IMG/VR virus record: IMGVR_UViG_2579779052_000011
Length of the DNA: 31,774 nt
Reading direction: 5' to 3' (one strand)
Source of the DNA: a virus
Lineage: Duplodnaviria; Heunggongvirae; Uroviricota; Caudoviricetes
A program made the position numbers and the translations under genes. Below are positions 2,712-9,088 of the stretch, in pieces; position 1 is the first letter of the stretch, and every line of letters begins with the position of its first letter. Below the pieces are notes generated by a model that was not told where the DNA came from, did no database searches, and saw only the letters and a list, made by a program, of their open reading frames with translations.

Positions 2712-3013
2712 TGTCCTGTTCTCGTTCGGTTGTATTACTGAATAACGCCTTAAAAATCGCCGTTATGGAAAATGGTGATTTGTCTCTTATTCAACTTGGT
2801 ATTGATAAAGAGAAGCGCGAAATAACTGAATCTGTTATCGCGATTTATCAGAGTGAATTAAACCTCCTGTCTGATGTGGTCAATTTACTTGTTAAACGCG
2901 CTGTATTCCACAAGCAAATTTCCTCAGTGGATGAACTGACAAAATTAACGACAGAACTCGCCAGTTATTGCGCTGATGAATTTAAGAAGCTGAACGACAA
3001 AAGGAGCTGGTAA
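2708..3013 (+). CDS. Hypothetical early protein (P2 orf81 position)
   Basis: 101-aa ORF; start overlaps upstream stop (ATGA). Confidence 0.6.
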
Positions 3014-3237
3014 TGCCGGACAACGTGGATTTTATTCAGGAACAACAGGCTGAATTACTGGAGCGCCAGATTAACGCGGCAAGGGTAAAACATTGCGGTG
3101 TTTCTGCGCTGGTTTGCGAAGAGTGTGACGCGCCAATACCTGCTGCCCGTCGTGCGGCTTATCCGTCAGCCACGCGTTGTGTTTCCTGTCAGTCAGTCTT
3201 TGAAGCAAAAAACAAACATTACCGGAGAACGGCATGA
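3013..3237 (+). CDS. TraR/DksA-type C4 zinc-finger protein (P2 orf82 position)
   Basis: 74-aa ORF with a CxxC...CxxC motif (CEECDAP...CVSCQ). Confidence 0.7.
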   Translation: MPDNVDFIQEQQAELLERQINAARVKHCGVSALVCEECDAPIPAARRAAYPSATRCVSCQSVFEAKNKHYRRTA

Positions 3238-3509
3238 GTATTCGTGTTGAAATTGGCGAACGTTATGTCGTTACCAGTGACAGCTTTCAGTTTATTCTCC
3301 ACGAGAAAAAGAGAGCGGAAAGCGGTAAAAACGCCGGTCAGGAATGGCTGGCGGTGGTTGGTTATTACCCGAAATTAGGCCAGCTCGTTTCCGGCCTGAT
3401 GCATCACGATATTCTGACCGGAAGCGCAAAATCTTTTGCTGATTTAAACGCGCAGGTTGAGCAACTCAGCAAGCGTTGTTCAGAGGCTTTTGGCTCATAT
3501 GGCCGTTAA
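3234..3509 (+). CDS. Hypothetical early protein (P2 orf83 position)
   Basis: 91-aa ORF; overlaps the start of A. Confidence 0.6.
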   Translation: MSIRVEIGERYVVTSDSFQFILHEKKRAESGKNAGQEWLAVVGYYPKLGQLVSGLMHHDILTGSAKSFADLNAQVEQLSKRCSEAFGSYGR

Positions 3510-5775
3510 AGCCTCCGGGCGTTTTGTCCCTCCGTCAGCATTTACCGCAGGCACCGGTAAGGCGTTTACCGGTGCTTATGCATGGAACGCGCCACGCGAG
3601 GCTGTCGGGCGCGAAAGACCTCTTACACGTGACGAGATGCGTCAGGTGCAAGGTGTTTTATCCACGATTAACCGCCTGCCTTACTTTTTGCGCTCGCTGT
3701 TTACTTCACGCTATGACTACATCCGGCGCAATAAAAGCCCGGTGCACGGGTTTTATTTCCTCACATCTACTTTTCAGCGTCGTTTATGGCCGCGCATTGA
3801 GCGTGTGAATCAGCGCCATGAAATGAACACCGACGCGTCGTTGCTGTTTCTGGCAGAGCGTGACCACTATGCGCGCCTGCCGGGAATGAATGACAAGGAG
3901 CTGAAAAAGTTTGCCGCCCGTATCTCATCGCAGCTTTTCATGATGTATGAGGAACTCTGCGATGCATGGGTTGATGCGCATGGTGAAAAAGAATCGCTGT
4001 TTACGGATGAGGCGCAGGCTCACCTGTATGGTCATGTTGCTGGCGCTGCACGTGCTTTCAATATTTCCCCGCTCTACTGGAAAAAATACCGTAAAGGACA
4101 GATGACCACGAGGCAGGCATATTCTGCCATTGCCCGCCTGTTTAACGATGAGTGGTGGACTCATCAGCTTAAAGGCCAGCGTATGCGCTGGCATGAGGCG
4201 TTACTGATAGCTGTCGGGGAGGTCAATAAAGACCGTTCTCCTTATGCCAGTAAACACGCCATTCGTGATGTGCGTGCGCGCCGCCAGGCAAATCTGGAAT
4301 TTCTTAAATCGTGTGACCTTGAAAACAGGGAAACCGGCGAGCGCATCGACCTTATCAGTAAGGTGATGGGCAGTATTTCTAATCCTGAAATTCGCCGGAT
4401 GGAGCTGATGAACACCATTGCCGGTATTGAGCGTTACGCCGCCGCAGAGGGTGATGTGGGGATGTTTATCACGCTGACCGCGCCGTCAAAGTATCACCCG
4501 ACACGTCAGGTCGGAAAAGGCGAAAGTAAAACCGTTCAGCTTAATCACGGCTGGAACGATGAGGCATTTAATCCAAAGGATGCGCAGCGTTATCTCTGCC
4601 GTATCTGGAGCCTGATGCGCACGGCATTCAAGGATAATGATTTACAGGTCTACGGTTTGCGAGTCGTCGAGCCACACCACGACGGAACGCCGCACTGGCA
4701 TATGATGCTTTTTTGTCATCCACGCCAGCGTAACCAGATTATCGAAATCATGCGTCGCTATGCGCTCAAAGAGGATGGCGACGAAAGAGGAGCCGCGCGA
4801 AACCGTTTTCAGGCAAAACACCTTAACCGGGGCGGTGCTGCGGGATATATCGCGAAATACATTTCAAAAAACATCGACGGCTATGCACTGGATGGTCAGC
4901 TCGATAACGACACCGGCAGGCCGCTGAAAGACACTGCAGCGGCTGTTACCGCATGGGCGTCAACGTGGCGCATTCCGCAATTTAAAACGGTTGGCCTGCC
5001 GACAATGGGGGCTTACCGTGAACTACGCAAATTGCCTCGCGGCGTCAGCATTGCTGATGAGTTTGACGAGCGCGTCGAGGCTGCACGCGCCGCCGCAGAC
5101 AGTGGTGATTTTGCGCTGTATATCAGCGCGCAGGGCGGGGCAAATGTCCCGCGCGATTGTCAGACTGTCAGGGTCGCCCGTAGTCTGTCGGATGACGTTA
5201 ACGAGTACGAGGAAGAAGTCGAGAGAGTGGTCGGCATTTACGCGCCGCATCTCGGCGCGCGTCATATTCATATCACCAGAACGACGGACTGGCGCATTGT
5301 GCCGAAAGTTCCGGTCGTTGAGCCTTTGACTTTAAAAAGCGGCATCGCCGCGCCTCGGAGTCCTGTCAATAACTGTGGAAAGCTCACCGGTGGTGATACT
5401 TCGTTACCGGCTCCCACACCTTCTGAGCACGCCGCAGCAGTGCTTAATCTGGTTGATGACGATGTTATCGAATGGAATGACCCGGAGGTCGTGAGGGCGC
5501 TCAGGGGCGCATTAAAACACGACCGGAGAACGCCAAACCGTCAGCAAAGAAACGGAAGCCCGTTAAAACCGCATGAAATTGCACCATCGGCCAGACTGAC
5601 CCGGTCGGAACGATTGCAAATTACCCGTATCCGCGTTGATCTCGCTCAGAACGGTATCAGGCCGCAACGATGGGAGCTTGAGGCGCTGGCGCGTGGCGCG
5701 ACCGTAAATTATGACGGGAAACCTTTCACTTATCAGGTCGCTGATGATTGGCCGGGGTTTTTGTTACCCATTTGA
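3499..5775 (+). CDS. A: Rolling-circle replication initiator/endonuclease, P2 gpA-like
   Basis: Large ORF; true start taken as the ATG at 3499 (MAVKASGRF...), which I recognise as the P2 A N-terminus; the listed ORF start at 3457 overlaps the upstream gene. Confidence 0.9.
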   Translation: MAVKASGRFVPPSAFTAGTGKAFTGAYAWNAPREAVGRERPLTRDEMRQVQGVLSTINRLPYFLRSLFTSRYDYIRRNKSPVHGFYFLTSTFQRRLWPRIERVNQRHEMNTDASLLFLAERDHYARLPGMNDKELKKFAARISSQLFMMYEELCDAWVDAHGEKESLFTDEAQAHLYGHVAGAARAFNISPLYWKKYRKGQMTTRQAYSAIARLFNDEWWTHQLKGQRMRWHEALLIAVGEVNKDRSPYASKHAIRDVRARRQANLEFLKSCDLENRETGERIDLISKVMGSISNPEIRRMELMNTIAGIERYAAAEGDVGMFITLTAPSKYHPTRQVGKGESKTVQLNHGWNDEAFNPKDAQRYLCRIWSLMRTAFKDNDLQVYGLRVVEPHHDGTPHWHMMLFCHPRQRNQIIEIMRRYALKEDGDERGAARNRFQAKHLNRGGAAGYIAKYISKNIDGYALDGQLDNDTGRPLKDTAAAVTAWASTWRIPQFKTVGLPTMGAYRELRKLPRGVSIADEFDERVEAARAAADSGDFALYISAQGGANVPRDCQTVRVARSLSDDVNEYEEEVERVVGIYAPHLGARHIHITRTTDWRIVPKVPVVEPLTLKSGIAAPRSPVNNCGKLTGGDTSLPAPTPSEHAAAVLNLVDDDVIEWNDPEVVRALRGALKHDRRTPNRQQRNGSPLKPHEIAPSARLTRSERLQITRIRVDLAQNGIRPQRWELEALARGATVNYDGKPFTYQVADDWPGFLLPI

Positions 5776-5960
5776 GTAAAAATACAGCGTGATTTTATAT
5801 GTCTTTGAATGGATTATGCGAAGCACCTCTAAGGTAGATGAGGAGCAATAGCGTGTTGAATCAGAAGGCTAAATTGTATTGAATCGTTAGCATGTAATTG
5901 AAGGCAGCTATTTGATTCGAGTCATAAAAGAGCATCTATTTCGGTTAATAAAACCATTGC

Positions 5961-6005
5961 GAGTGACTTTATGTCGAAGCATAATTCATCTCGAGCGAAG
6001 TCTTG
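5961..6005. repeat. Direct repeat copy 1 (GAGTGACT...GAGCGAAGTCTTGC)
   Basis: Shares the GAGTGACT start and the 14-bp GAGCGAAGTCTTGC end with 6246-6270, with about 20 extra bp in between. Confidence 0.6.
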
Positions 6006-6037
6006 CTAGTCTTTCATCGGATTGATGACGGGCGCAA

Positions 6038-6069
6038 AAAAACCACCCTGGCAGGTGGTTTTTTTGTTT
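6038..6069. terminator. Bidirectional rho-independent terminator after the early operon
   Basis: AAAAAAA-CCACCCTGGCAGGTGG-TTTTTTT: GC-rich hairpin flanked by an A-tract and a T-tract. Confidence 0.8.
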
Positions 6070-6077
6070 GAAGCATA

Positions 6078-6191
6078 CTAAAGAAAAATACTTACATGGA
6101 TATTACTGACGTTTACTGACAAACCACTCGGACTACCATATGGATAGCCAAAGAGGGCCAGAACGAGAATGCAGTAATAGCACTTCTTCAT
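6078..6191 (-). CDS. Small hydrophobic peptide (37 aa), function unknown
   Basis: ATG with a consensus GGAGG Shine-Dalgarno 5 nt upstream; hand-translated as MKKCYYCILVLALFGYPYGSPSGLSVNVSNIHVSIFL; ends just before the bidirectional terminator. Below the ORF-track size cutoff. Confidence 0.3.
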   Translation of the reverse strand: MKKCYYCILVLALFGYPYGSPSGLSVNVSNIHVSIFL

Positions 6192-6245
6192 ATCGCCTCC
6201 TGTAAGCAGAGGGCAATTTCCGCCGATATATGCGCTTCTAAGGCG

Positions 6246-6270
6246 GAGTGACTATTGAGCGAAGTCTTGC
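6246..6270. repeat. Direct repeat copy 2 (GAGTGACTATTGAGCGAAGTCTTGC)
   Basis: Shares the terminal 14-bp GAGCGAAGTCTTGC and the GAGTGACT start with 5961-6005. Confidence 0.6.
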
Positions 6271-6848
6271 CCTGAAATAATGCTCTGTTTAAACGCAAAG
6301 TGATCTGGCATATCACCGAACAGAGGACCTGAACAACACAACATATAGTATGTCGTTGTTTCTGGTTGCATTTTATGTTGTGTAATACTGGTTTTGCATC
6401 AAGGATGTTTGAGCTTTTTTTGATATAGCTCAAAGTAAAAAGCAGAGACTACGGATGATAAGGTCTTGAAAGCAATGTAAATTTTTTAAAGTTGTGAGTG
6501 GCTAGAAATGCACAGTTTCAATATGGCGGATTTAAACAAGTAATTAAAAATAGCGACATAAATTCCAATAAAATCATTAAGTTGCGTTTTCTGTGGAAAC
6601 TTCGGTGACTCTGAAATTTTCTTTTAGTGTCGCTGAGGTTTAACAACGCGCTGCGCAAGTAGTTAGTGTTTTTTTAACTCAATATTCTGATTTATAAGGT
6701 TTTTTATAAATCGTGGGCTGGTTGCGCGTATTCATCTCGTGTTATCAGCAAAGATAAGCTCTATATGCAGAACGGAATGCATATATGATGTCGAAAATGT
6801 TATGGGAAAACGTGGATTAGTGTTATAGTAATGGCTGAAAAACAGCCT

Positions 6849-6877
6849 TGACATAAAATAACAACTGTGATATGGCT
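6849..6877 (+). promoter_or_regulatory. Putative sigma70 promoter for the cargo peptidase gene
   Basis: TTGACA at 6849-6854, 17-bp spacer, TATGGC -10-like hexamer; TAGGAGG RBS at 6901-6907. Confidence 0.4.
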
Positions 6878-6912
6878 GTGCATACTTAACTTTTTTAACG
6901 TAGGAGGCAACC

Positions 6913-7398
6913 ATGAGCTATGCAGCTAAAAAACTGCTTGACCGCTATTGGGATCGCCGACTACCTGTCGATCCGTTTAAGCTTGCTAAAGCGTGGGGTG
7001 CTCGTGTTGAAGCACTTGAGGAATCGGCTTATAACAACGATGGGTTAAGCGGTCTGGCTGTCATCAAAAAGGGTGTCCATAGGATTTATTTTGATTCTAG
7101 TGAACATTCTAATCGTCAACGTTTTACTGTTGCACACGAGTTAGGTCATCATGTGCTGGGGCATACCCAGGACGGAGAGTACCATCGGGATAATGTCGGG
7201 AATTATTCAACAGGTGCTCGTGATTACCGTGAGGTTGAAGCAAACAAGTTTGCTGCTGAGTTGTTAATGCCTGAGTCTGCTATACGTCAATTGGTATCCA
7301 GAGAAGGTATTGATAGCACTTTGAGATTAGCAAGCATCTTTAATGTATCAGAAGCCGCTATGCATTGGCGCTTAAAGAGCTTAGGAATGGCTTATTAA
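6913..7398 (+). CDS. ImmA/IrrE-family (DUF955) zinc metallopeptidase
   Basis: 161-aa ORF with HEXXH (HELGHH) and the downstream family motif EANKFAAELLMPE; strong RBS; AT-rich. Confidence 0.8.
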   Translation: MSYAAKKLLDRYWDRRLPVDPFKLAKAWGARVEALEESAYNNDGLSGLAVIKKGVHRIYFDSSEHSNRQRFTVAHELGHHVLGHTQDGEYHRDNVGNYSTGARDYREVEANKFAAELLMPESAIRQLVSREGIDSTLRLASIFNVSEAAMHWRLKSLGMAY

Positions 7399-7426
7399 TT
7401 AGCCTTTAACTTTTAACCTGTTTAAA

Positions 7427-7465
7427 ATCACCTTTACGTTTGTACATGTAAGGGTGATTTTTTTA
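7427..7465 (+). terminator. Rho-independent terminator or attenuator after the peptidase gene
   Basis: 10-bp stem (AUCACCUUUA / UAAGGGUGAU, one G-U pair) followed by a run of 7 T; ends at the start codon of the next ORF. Confidence 0.6.
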
Positions 7466-8064
7466 TGGCTGATATTGATTTATCTGGACAGTCCCCAGAG
7501 CAAGGAACCACTCCTAAGGGCGATTTAGATCCTGATATCCTTATAAGGCGAGATAGACGGGATGGTATAGAGCGTAGAAGCATGCGATTAGTGCTCTCTG
7601 CCGTTGTGCTTTGTTTTGCTTGTACATTTCTATGGCAGGGGCTTAACTTTGCTTTGGCTGTTGGAAATGGCTTGCTGGAAGCGAAAAGCAGTATTGCCGC
7701 AGCGATAACACAAAAAGTAGATACACAAACTTGTGTTTCAGCAGAAAAATGTTCTGCTTTATCTTCGGATCCGAAGATGGCTGATGAGAGGATAACACCA
7801 TCTTCAGACACTAATAAAGTTAGAAAATCTATTTCTGGTTTATCCACCGATTGGTTATCGGCCAGTTCTCTAATAGCTATTGTTGCATTCATCCTTGGTG
7901 TGGGTTTAACTTTGCTTTTGACTCTTCTTAAATCAGCATTTCAACACCCGACAGATAAAGACTTTAGAACAAAGTCGACATCTAATACTATTGAGTTGGC
8001 CACGCCAATCAGTGAATTAATAATTGGTGTTCTGAATATAATTAAAGACAAACTATCTAAGTAA
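7465..8064 (+). CDS. Hypothetical membrane protein with two predicted TM helices
   Basis: 199-aa ORF; hydrophobic segments LVLSAVVLCFACTFLW and LIAIVAFILGVGLTLLLTLL; no recognisable RBS; followed by a terminator. Confidence 0.45.
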   Translation: MADIDLSGQSPEQGTTPKGDLDPDILIRRDRRDGIERRSMRLVLSAVVLCFACTFLWQGLNFALAVGNGLLEAKSSIAAAITQKVDTQTCVSAEKCSALSSDPKMADERITPSSDTNKVRKSISGLSTDWLSASSLIAIVAFILGVGLTLLLTLLKSAFQHPTDKDFRTKSTSNTIELATPISELIIGVLNIIKDKLSK

Positions 8065-8106
8065 AGCATTAGTTGTGATTTTTTATTGGTTTTAGTGATA
8101 ATACAT

Positions 8107-8139
8107 CTCCAGTACTTATTGTTACTGGAGAGTATTTTT
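8107..8139 (+). terminator. Rho-independent terminator between convergent cargo genes
   Basis: Perfect 8-bp stem CTCCAGTA...TACTGGAG followed by AGTATTTTTA. Confidence 0.6.
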
Positions 8140-8146
8140 AGTCGTT

Positions 8147-9088
8147 TTATATTTTTAATGTTAGTGAATGATATTCACGAGAGTTCACGTTCGATGTGAT
8201 GTAATCGGGGGCGTTAACACCAAGAATCGCAACGAGTAATCGGCAAATTAAAGCCTGCATTTGTTGTAATATGTCATCTCCATATTGATAATTGTTAATA
8301 GTGGTAAAGCCAAGTGGTTGACCATGAAACATAGCTTCATGAAAGTTTTCATTGCGGATGTTTGTAATGTTTTTTTTGCCTGTAACCCATGATGGTCGTG
8401 GTATTCCATAAGTTTTGCAGATCCACTTCAAGCGCCTGGAGTGATTTAGAGTCTTTTCTGTACACTTGTTCTTTTCTGCCCATGTTAAAGCAAAGCAACT
8501 ATCCAGTGCCATATAAAGATACTGGAATTTTTCGAAGCTAAGGTATTGTGGGTTTTGGGATAAAAATAGTGCATGCACTATTGCTGCTATATTTATTGGT
8601 GCGTGTTTGGTTTTTGTCTCGCTAGACATGTATTTGAGTGCTAATTCTATAACCTCTTTTTCAGAGCACTTGACCAGAATAAAGTCAGTTAATTTGCTAG
8701 GTTTTATTGGGGTTGCGTCTAAAAAACCGGCATCAGTAGTTGTTAATCTTATCCCTTTGAAAAAAGACAGACACCACACAGCAAAATTGAGAGTTTCTAG
8801 TGAAGATGTATTTTTTAATTTTAGTGAGTGTGTTTTGGGTAAGCCAAATACTCGTTGGCTAAAAGGCATTGTGGATATGCCTCCATTGAGGTTATATACT
8901 TCTTGGTTTCCTGGGTATATCCAACCGTTAATAACATTTCTGTGATTGTTTATAAGATTTGTTTTTTCCGCTAGACCGGGTAAAGTAAGTAAAGAAAAAT
9001 CATCAGTTTCAACGTTAACTTCTACTGGATAGTATCCAAACTCAGCTTCAATATCATTGGATTGCTGTTCGTCAACTTTACCTTGCAT
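8147..9088 (-). CDS. Hypothetical 313-aa protein in the old/tin hotspot; possible HEPN-like Rx4H motif; candidate defence effector
   Basis: AT-rich ORF with GGAG RBS 8 nt upstream; occupies the cos-proximal slot where P2 has old; C-terminal IRNENFHEAMFHG motif. Confidence 0.6.
   Translation of the reverse strand: MQGKVDEQQSNDIEAEFGYYPVEVNVETDDFSLLTLPGLAEKTNLINNHRNVINGWIYPGNQEVYNLNGGISTMPFSQRVFGLPKTHSLKLKNTSSLETLNFAVWCLSFFKGIRLTTTDAGFLDATPIKPSKLTDFILVKCSEKEVIELALKYMSSETKTKHAPINIAAIVHALFLSQNPQYLSFEKFQYLYMALDSCFALTWAEKNKCTEKTLNHSRRLKWICKTYGIPRPSWVTGKKNITNIRNENFHEAMFHGQPLGFTTINNYQYGDDILQQMQALICRLLVAILGVNAPDYITSNVNSREYHSLTLKI

Follow-up and report, generated by a model that had tools for sequence, protein, structure and literature searches.

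A candidate small-RNA-controlled small-protein cassette with an nrdDG-type promoter in P2-like prophages and enterobacterial plasmids

In the trans-type pairs TisB/IstR-1 and ZorO/OrzO of E. coli, an RNA is complementary over about 18-21 nt to a long toxin leader at a site far upstream of the ribosome-binding site (RBS). The tisB promoter is wired to LexA, its antitoxin looks constitutive, and the Shine-Dalgarno (SD) sequence is sequestered in the primary transcript of these pairs. The toxin and RNA genes of BsrG/SR4 and TxpA/RatA, from Bacillus subtilis prophages, converge and overlap at their 3' ends. TimP/TimR (ryfA/ryfB; STnc2070) of Salmonella and E. coli consists of an mRNA of about 300 nt with a 145-170-nt leader and an open reading frame (ORF) of 38-41 amino acids, and a separate RNA (PMC7667032). 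Here we describe a two-gene cassette that combines features of these systems. It lies in a 31,774-nt stretch of viral DNA (IMG/VR record IMGVR_UViG_2579779052_000011) from a P2-like (Peduovirus) prophage; this stretch is called the window, and coordinates are positions in it. A preliminary description of the same DNA had pointed out a small minus-strand ORF, a terminator and flanking direct repeats, and had likened the arrangement to a type I toxin-antitoxin (TA) locus. That reading has gained from the comparisons presented below, which reveal purifying selection on the peptide gene and a candidate antisense regulator. Judged by sequence comparison, the description that fits the cassette best is that of a new family of small-protein (probably toxin) units under small-RNA control, which have an nrdDG-type promoter and are mobile among prophages and plasmids.

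The 37-codon ORF on the minus strand is present as first described (Table 1). Homologues were sought with the 37-residue alignment padded with three in-frame upstream residues. An exhaustive HMMER search with the 37-residue sequence against 1.84 billion representatives returned six related proteins of 37-88 residues, plus two long proteins that are probably chance matches. The HMMER loci together with plasmid BLAST matches gave ten distinct peptides of 37-39 residues from E. coli, Klebsiella, Kluyvera, Salmonella, Leclercia and metagenomes. These ten homologues are the basis of the peptide comparisons, and 12 cassette lineages are the basis of the lineage comparisons. Start codon, stop codon, SD sequence and length of the ORF are kept throughout the ten, down to 16-24% identity. 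The perfect GGAGG reported upstream of the ATG is indeed there, at a spacing of 4 nt rather than 5 nt. An 81-codon ORF with a TTG start (6188-6433) had been dismissed as non-coding, in agreement with its position across the promoter and leader of the peptide gene and with a stop codon in a close relative.

The consensus of the peptides is M-(K/N)-(K/R)-x-x-x-C-I-L-V-L-(A/T)-L-F-G-Y-P-x-G-S-(Q/P)-S-G-(W/L)-S-V-x-V-S-x-I-x-V-x-I-x-L. The N-terminus is short and positively charged. After it come about 12 hydrophobic residues, similar to a Sec signal or anchor, then a Gly-Tyr-Pro break and finally a C-terminal tail of alternating polar and hydrophobic residues; this layout would suit a small inner-membrane protein. 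The peptide has no match in Pfam or NCBIfam at E<=10, and with PHROGs included nothing was found beyond a chance match with an E-value of 0.42.

It is conceivable that the ORF is untranslated and that the minus-strand RNA is non-coding, or a decoy with FNR and NrdR sites from a host promoter, its conservation reflecting constraint on the RNA. RefSeq has no annotation anywhere in the 1.1 kb between gene A (replication endonuclease, end at 5775) and the next annotated gene, for an ImmA/IrrE-type peptidase (start at 6913), in about 150 E. coli carrier genomes, although one phage record labels the ORF 'hypothetical protein'. Such an RNA would also fit a central 39-nt stretch of the ORF that is identical among the P2-like variants and an SD sequence that is predicted to be paired. 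However, the length, start, stop and SD sequence persist across genera while the nucleotides diverge, and the divergence has a synonymous excess: the ratio of nonsynonymous to synonymous differences per site (pN/pS) is 0.26-0.48 at a pS of 0.5-0.9, close to saturation of the synonymous sites. The amino-acid changes are conservative (I/L/V, N/D/S), other reading frames across the region are interrupted in relatives, and sequestered SD sequences are usual in type I toxin mRNAs. We consider an untranslated ORF very improbable; the pattern of substitutions indicates a real gene under purifying selection.

The direct repeats provide the second line of evidence. Exact copies of the 14-mer GAGCGAAGTCTTGC occur at both of the sites described earlier and nowhere else in the window, where about 0.28 chance matches would be expected with two mismatches allowed. 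The accompanying 8-mer GAGTGACT is real in the window (at 5961 and 6246) but did not hold up elsewhere, as related copies have GGGGAACC or GAGATGCT on the left and GAATGACT or GAGCGACT on the right. It was ruled out as a piece of a functional repeat and is probably incidental. The left copy of the 14-mer would be part of a plus-strand transcript and the right copy part of a minus-strand one, which makes the two RNAs complementary. The left copy would form the 5' seed of a small RNA, and the right copy its target in the leader of the peptide mRNA, with the end of the target 64-67 nt upstream of the AUG in every lineage.

The seed and target change together. In every lineage a duplex of 14-17 bp is preserved, and the seeds fall into two classes. 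E. coli prophages, Klebsiella plasmids and the Kluyvera copy next to filamentous-phage genes have class A (GAGCGAAGUCUUG); IncF plasmids of Salmonella, Citrobacter and Leclercia have class B (GAGCAAAGCCUUA). Between the classes, positions 5, 9 and 13 switch on both sides (G:C>A:U, U:A>C:G and G:C>A:U, respectively), and at position 14 C:G, U:G and U:A pairs are all seen. With the two repeats in register 91.5% of cells are paired, versus 27-44% when the register is slid, and four pairs are changed on both sides. The covariation score is 0.216, compared with 0.144±0.020 in shuffles, none of which (0/500) reaches it. The class B copies also carry more divergent 39-residue peptides, MDRRDCMCLFILTLISHLITGQESWMVYLNHISLTVQFY and MNRRNCICLFVLALISQMVVGQGSWMIYIHQISLSIQVN (Salmonella pCFSAN048049, 4000-4560; Leclercia p707804-3FII, 3001-3565).

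Identical direct repeats that change together would also be expected of two sites for one DNA-binding protein, and the repeats do bracket the ORF and terminator, as target-site or recombination scars of a mini-insertion might. If they were such DNA-level features there would be no small RNA. Several observations argue against this possibility. With a single exception, a mismatch at position 1 (the terminal pair) of one lineage, the one-sided differences within the duplex are transitions that give G·U pairs in the RNA:RNA orientation; on the opposite strands the same changes would be A·C mismatches, and a DNA-binding protein would not need such a bias. The left repeat lies at an exact distance from a conserved -10 element and is followed by a conserved hairpin and terminator, and the 8-mer part of the repeat is not conserved. 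Finally, the idea of a mini-insertion cassette bracketed by the repeats is at odds with the extent of the conserved unit, which contains both: homology between contexts runs about 50-90 bp past the left repeat, to about 5905, and about 225 bp past the right repeat, to about 6495, and the repeats are present in every context, so that they are not junctions. The covariation thus favours pairing between two RNAs over insertion scars or protein sites, and we give the latter explanations hardly any credence.

For the antisense RNA itself, a promoter had been suggested on the plus strand within 6080-6250. A promoter scan found none there; the sole plus-strand promoter-like site in 5600-7100 is TTGCGA-17-CATAAT, located downstream of the ORF. 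CATAAT and the spacing are kept in all 12 lineages, with the -35 element (TTGCGR) only partly kept in two type B plasmid copies, and the seed begins exactly 7 nt after the -10 element in 12/12. This putative small-RNA promoter looks constitutive. It may also respond to FNR or a CRP-family factor, since a palindrome of the form TTGAT-N4-(G/A)TCAT stands upstream of it in each of the 12 lineages. The predicted RNA folds with -31.9 kcal/mol (z = -4.06). Its second hairpin still forms in divergent copies of unrelated sequence, and the G·U pairs of this hairpin fit the plus strand only. Rfam searches of the window and one plasmid copy gave no family match, only the sub-threshold, terminator-driven hits RNAI, Phe_leader and P9. 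The host nrdD mRNA was considered as a second target of the small RNA and rejected, as its duplex energy is no better than that of shuffled seeds.

The terminator noted just past the ORF is a perfect inverted repeat (arms 6035-6047 and 6054-6066), 12 nt beyond the stop codon. With A7 on one side of the repeat and U7 on the other, termination is possible in both directions, and the two converging transcripts could share it. Including its 6-nt loop (AAAAAAACCACC CUGGCA GGUGGUUUUUUU), the terminator is identical in 12/12 lineages, and the remainder of the cassette differs by 25-30%. Such conservation exceeds the apparent needs of termination; possible reasons are constraint from two transcripts, Hfq binding or the 3' overlap of both RNAs.

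The promoter of the peptide gene has a homology to host DNA that the preliminary description had overlooked. By BLAST, window positions 6393-6489 match the treC-nrdD intergenic region in all 5426 complete E. coli genomes (E ~1e-21), and the identity to the nrdDG promoter is 84-94% over 66-97 nt. The match is oriented such that the promoter would fire on the minus strand, toward the ORF. The order FNR-2, 17 bp, FNR-1, 13 bp, TAAAAT, with its 14-17-14-13-6 spacing, is the same in nrdDG and in 12/12 cassette lineages. From these alignments, the promoter would be copied from, or share ancestry with, that of host nrdDG (anaerobic ribonucleotide reductase). With the start position taken from the -10 element, the predicted FNR sites are centred at about -64.5 and -33.5, and FNR control of the peptide gene is a well-supported prediction. 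The host nrdDG operon is activated by FNR and has two NrdR boxes with a 15-bp linker (PMC12176259, PMC2892513). We compared the cassette with the NrdR consensus acaCwAtATaTwGtgt (16-bp boxes with a 15-16-bp linker overlapping the promoter). The two NrdR-box-like 16-mers in the window are displaced by about 10 bp, or about one helical turn, relative to those of E. coli nrdDG, and their linker is 16 bp versus 15 bp. The copies from Leclercia, the metagenome and Kluyvera retain NrdR boxes like those of nrdDG; the copies on Klebsiella plasmids match the consensus at fewer than 11 of 16 positions. NrdR control of the cassette is plausible on this evidence. Box 2 in the Leclercia p707804-3FII copy keeps the nrdDG-like ACCCAATAAGTAGTAT; the Salmonella pCFSAN048049 copy has CCCCTACAGGTAGGGG, which resembles box 2 of nrdAB.

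Table 1. Predicted features of the cassette (positions in the window).
Feature	Position	Strand	Details
Conserved mobile cassette, ~590 bp	5905-6495	both	block identity 96-98% among P2-like variants
FNR-like palindrome	5912-5925	+	TTGATTCGAGTCAT; centred ~-74.5 from predicted small-RNA start
Predicted sigma-70 promoter of small RNA	5957-5985	+	-35 TTGCGA 5957-5962; 17-bp spacer; -10 CATAAT 5980-5985
Predicted ~80-nt small RNA, candidate antitoxin	5993-6073	+	5' seed, hairpin 2 (6009-6033), terminator hairpin, U tail
Seed (left repeat copy)	5993-6006	+	GAGCGAAGUCUUGC; exact complement of minus-strand RNA 6270-6257
Bidirectional intrinsic terminator, common to both converging transcripts	6034-6067	both	13-bp inverted repeat, 100% complementary
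37-codon ORF, candidate toxin or small membrane protein	6078-6191	-	MKKCYYCILVLALFGYPYGSPSGLSVNVSNIHVSIFL + stop; length kept at 37-39 aa in 10 homologues
Shine-Dalgarno sequence	6196-6200	-	GGAGG, read from sequence; 4-nt spacer (CGAT) to ATG
Structured 5' leader of peptide mRNA	6192-6363	-	stem-loops 6282-6325 and 6219-6247; start predicted
Small-RNA target in leader (right repeat copy)	6257-6270	-	GCAAGACUUCGCUC; co-varies with seed
NrdR-box-like 16-mers (two)	6336-6351; 6368-6383	-	ATACTATATGTTGTGT and ACACAACATAAAATGC; 16-bp linker; 14/16 and 12/16 consensus matches
nrdDG-type promoter	6370-6433	-	-10 TAAAAT 6370-6375; FNR-1 TTGATGCAAAACCA 6389-6402; FNR-2 TTGAGCTATATCAA 6420-6433

Because TAAAAT (6375-6370) is taken as the -10 element, the peptide mRNA is expected to start at about 6363 and to have a leader of 172 nt. 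Compensatory changes are seen in 7 of the 26 pairs of the leader consensus fold, and the fold of the whole mRNA has a z-score of -3.75. Folding predicts that most of the SD sequence pairs with a CCCUC-type anti-SD stretch upstream of it. An attractive switch would have the small RNA free the anti-SD (UUGCCC/UGCCGCC) from the target region, upon which the anti-SD would close the SD. Folding gave no support for this switch: in partition-function calculations on eight variants, blocking the target shifted SD accessibility in no consistent direction.

From these comparisons we infer transcription of both genes, control by FNR and NrdR, repression by the small RNA, toxicity and a biological role, which would fit together as follows. 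The nrdDG-type promoter would produce an mRNA of about 330 nt comprising the 172-nt structured leader, a largely sequestered SD, the 37-codon ORF and the intrinsic terminator. From the sigma-70 promoter, a transcript of about 80 nt would run toward the peptide gene and stop at the bidirectional terminator that the mRNA also uses. The 5'-terminal 14-17 nt of this RNA would pair with the leader 65 nt upstream of the AUG. How pairing at this distance might repress translation (standby-site occlusion, cleavage or another route) can be inferred by analogy: as for TimR/timP, IstR-1/tisB and OrzO/zorO, it may prevent translation (perhaps at a standby site), induce cleavage, or both. Peptide synthesis would then require an excess of mRNA over the small RNA. 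Given the type of promoter, peptide production would be expected under anaerobiosis (through FNR) and at low deoxyadenosine triphosphate (dATP) levels (through release of NrdR).

A type I toxin-antitoxin-like addiction or stress module that serves the carrier prophage or plasmid is probably the role of the cassette. Type I systems encode a small (<60 residues) hydrophobic protein on a stable mRNA under tight control; the protein is toxic when over-expressed, and the RNA counters it by preventing translation or destabilising the mRNA. The cassette encodes one of 37-39 residues behind a structured leader and a paired SD. They also have an antisense RNA that pairs with the toxin mRNA; here a duplex of 14-17 bp with four positions changed on both sides is found computationally. 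Several points weigh against such a role. Both promoters, that of the mRNA and that of the small RNA, are predictions from sequence, and so is toxicity. The hydrophobic stretch (about 12-15 residues) is short for a pore former that spans the membrane, and it is not obvious why a chromosomally integrated prophage would need such a module. Klebsiella plasmid copies have weak NrdR-like boxes or none, and in the window copy the boxes are out of place relative to nrdDG. As folding predicts a largely paired SD whether the target is blocked or free, an SD-closing switch finds no support. Lastly, the independent covariation events are few: the two lineages of class B have common descent, and one further event comes from position 14.

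In the most serious alternative, the product is a benign small membrane or periplasmic protein with a job in anaerobic growth or nucleotide shortage, for instance modulating a transporter, a sensor kinase or the envelope, and the small RNA tunes its level. The promoter is of metabolic (nrdDG) build rather than SOS-controlled or constitutive. The short hydrophobic segment is followed by a conserved polar tail, GS(Q/P)SG(W/L)SV.VS.I.V.I, that looks more like an interaction surface than a pore, the peptide matches no toxin family, and even TimP is barely toxic when natively expressed. However, the cassette is almost confined to mobile elements (prophages, inoviruses and conjugative plasmids) as opposed to core chromosomes. 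In addition, a co-evolving antisense seed, a long structured leader and a sequestered SD are the hallmark of products that must be kept off, such as type I toxins. On balance we think a benign protein unlikely, and prefer a toxin.

A bolder form of the toxin-antitoxin reading is possible, although we hold it to be rather doubtful. The cassette would constitute a previously unrecognised type I TA family in P2-like prophages, filamentous prophages and more than 400 conjugative plasmids of Klebsiella, Salmonella, Citrobacter and Leclercia, in which a toxin gene has captured the nrdDG regulatory region. The carrier would be poisoned or arrested specifically under anoxia combined with a fall in the dATP signal that NrdR senses, and the class A and class B seeds would define orthogonal groups, with elements of the same class cross-protecting. 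If so, the cassette would be a 'nucleotide-status' switch of mobile elements, used for plasmid or prophage addiction or for abortive defence against phages that perturb deoxynucleoside triphosphate (dNTP) pools.

The conserved block sets the cassette apart from its surroundings. Among P2-like variants, identity is 96-98% from about 5905/5915 to 6495 and drops to 65-85% in the flanks. The block lies directly 3' of gene A in P2-like prophages regardless of what follows, which can be an M78 peptidase and two further genes of unknown function, an AAA ATPase and one gene, or only the cohesive-end site (cos) and the portal gene. Because the position after gene A is constant while the following genes vary, the cassette is an autonomous unit rather than a control region for the cargo. 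Its occurrence in different kinds of element indicates a self-contained two-gene unit that moves between mobile elements. The preliminary description had proposed a search for the repeat and peptide in other P2-like prophages; both are conserved there, and both also occur in filamentous-phage and plasmid contexts.

At least 80% of the block is present in 152 of 5426 complete E. coli genomes, in all cases within P2-like prophages. In IMG/VR, a DNA pattern and a protein pattern retrieved the same set of 31 contigs, and three phage records contain the cassette. Two filamentous-prophage contexts (Kluyvera georgiana and a metagenome) adjoin genes for secretin, Zot and DUF2523 proteins. Most numerous are the 423-477 plasmids in PLSDB, for the greater part conjugative IncF plasmids of Klebsiella; roughly 90% come from this genus and roughly 80% are conjugative, and hardly any carries an annotation where the match lies. 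Among GTDB species-representative genomes there were only two spurious matches, in Zixibacteria, and the cassette is absent from the enterobacterial representatives. Literature searches for the peptide, its locus tag in E. coli W and the general subject turned up no account of the cassette.

Several further observations concern the surroundings of the cassette. In a prophage lacking cargo (NZ_AP027869.1, ~3040-3110), the P2 cohesive-end sequence GGCGAGGCGGGGAAAGCAC follows the cassette almost directly, which places the cassette at the right end of the packaged genome. In E. coli S65EC (NZ_CP036245.1, 1725-4000), the gene A homologue is annotated as a frameshifted pseudogene, and the adjoining cassette is 99.9% identical to that in the window, so that even a possibly defective prophage can retain the cassette. 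The cargo of the window, between the cassette and the portal gene (6913-9088), consists of a 161-residue M78 (ImmA/IrrE) peptidase, a 199-residue protein and, on the other strand, a 313-residue protein. The best PADLOC match of the peptidase is CapP (1e-30), and the other two proteins have no match in Pfam or PADLOC. The same site in other P2-like prophages holds an AAA ATPase and a 145-residue gene product, or is empty, and this segment resembles the variable hotspot for anti-phage genes in P2-like phages. A weak terminator-like hairpin (GGTCGCTGATGATTGGCC, then GGGGTTTTTG) occurs at 5736-5763, within the final codons of gene A. If this hairpin leaks, read-through of the early operon on the same strand would enter the small-RNA gene and stop at the shared terminator. 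In lytic growth, such read-through would supplement the RNA of antitoxin sense.

If the prediction is right, annotation has overlooked a two-gene module of 0.6 kb on hundreds of resistance or virulence plasmids of clinical importance in Klebsiella and Salmonella and in about 3% of complete E. coli genomes. It would represent a new small-toxin/small-RNA family, to our knowledge the first that is wired to the FNR/NrdR logic of ribonucleotide reductase, and through it oxygen and dNTP status would be linked to how mobile elements are maintained or defended. For a compensatory-mutation test, the seed-target pairs of classes A and B are ready-made natural material. The cassette is also a clean case of a host-type promoter carried by a mobile element as a regulatory module.

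Of the described systems, TimP/TimR is the nearest analogue, although the cassette is not demonstrably related to it. The mRNA size, the leader length and the short ORF are comparable. Both peptides have a Sec-signal-like hydrophobic N-terminus with a C-x-C motif, followed by a polar tail. In both cases a neighbouring, separately transcribed RNA is able to pair through its 5' end with the leader (18 nt for TimR; 14-17 nt predicted here) at a constant distance from the ORF, and the RNA that carries the seed is followed by an intrinsic terminator. No homology was detected: NCBIfam, which names TimP, gave no match, and the Rfam model for RyfA (RF00126) gave none at E<=1 in the window and a plasmid copy. 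Profile-profile comparison with hhalign was not significant, with probabilities of 5.4% and 6.6% over 10-11 N-terminal columns only. The architectures differ as well. The timR gene is divergent from timP and upstream of it, whereas the RNA gene of the cassette is convergent and shares a terminator with the peptide gene; timP is a constitutive gene of a chromosomal core locus, whereas the cassette is mobile and has an FNR/NrdR-type promoter.

TisB/IstR-1 and ZorO/OrzO resemble the cassette in having a separate small RNA, a short pairing with the leader far upstream of the RBS, a stress-wired toxin promoter and a sequestered SD. Their peptides are unrelated to ours, their genes are divergent, and the regulators predicted for the cassette are FNR and NrdR instead of LexA. 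BsrG/SR4 and TxpA/RatA share with it the convergent genes, the 3' overlap and the prophage location. In those pairs, from another phylum and with unrelated peptides, the 3' overlap is the site of interaction; in the cassette it comprises only the terminator hairpin, and the predicted interaction is between the 5' end of the small RNA and the leader. Profiles and RNA models (Pfam, NCBIfam, PHROGs and Rfam) gave no match to Hok/Sok, Ldr/Rdl, Ibs/Sib, ShoB/OhsC, TisB, DinQ, ZorO or other named toxin families.

The regulatory region finds its closest counterpart in the E. coli nrdDG promoter, with the same FNR-2/FNR-1/-10 layout and with NrdR-box-like 16-mers flanking or following the -10 element. 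The cassette promoter would drive a 37-codon ORF instead of nrdD, and the leader past the start is unrelated. In its setting the cassette is similar to a phage moron: it has its own predicted promoter and terminator, sits between gene A and cos or the portal gene near a variable cargo hotspot, and is dispensable for phage functions. Unlike a moron, it has a second, antisense gene, and it travels as a unit to plasmids and inoviruses.

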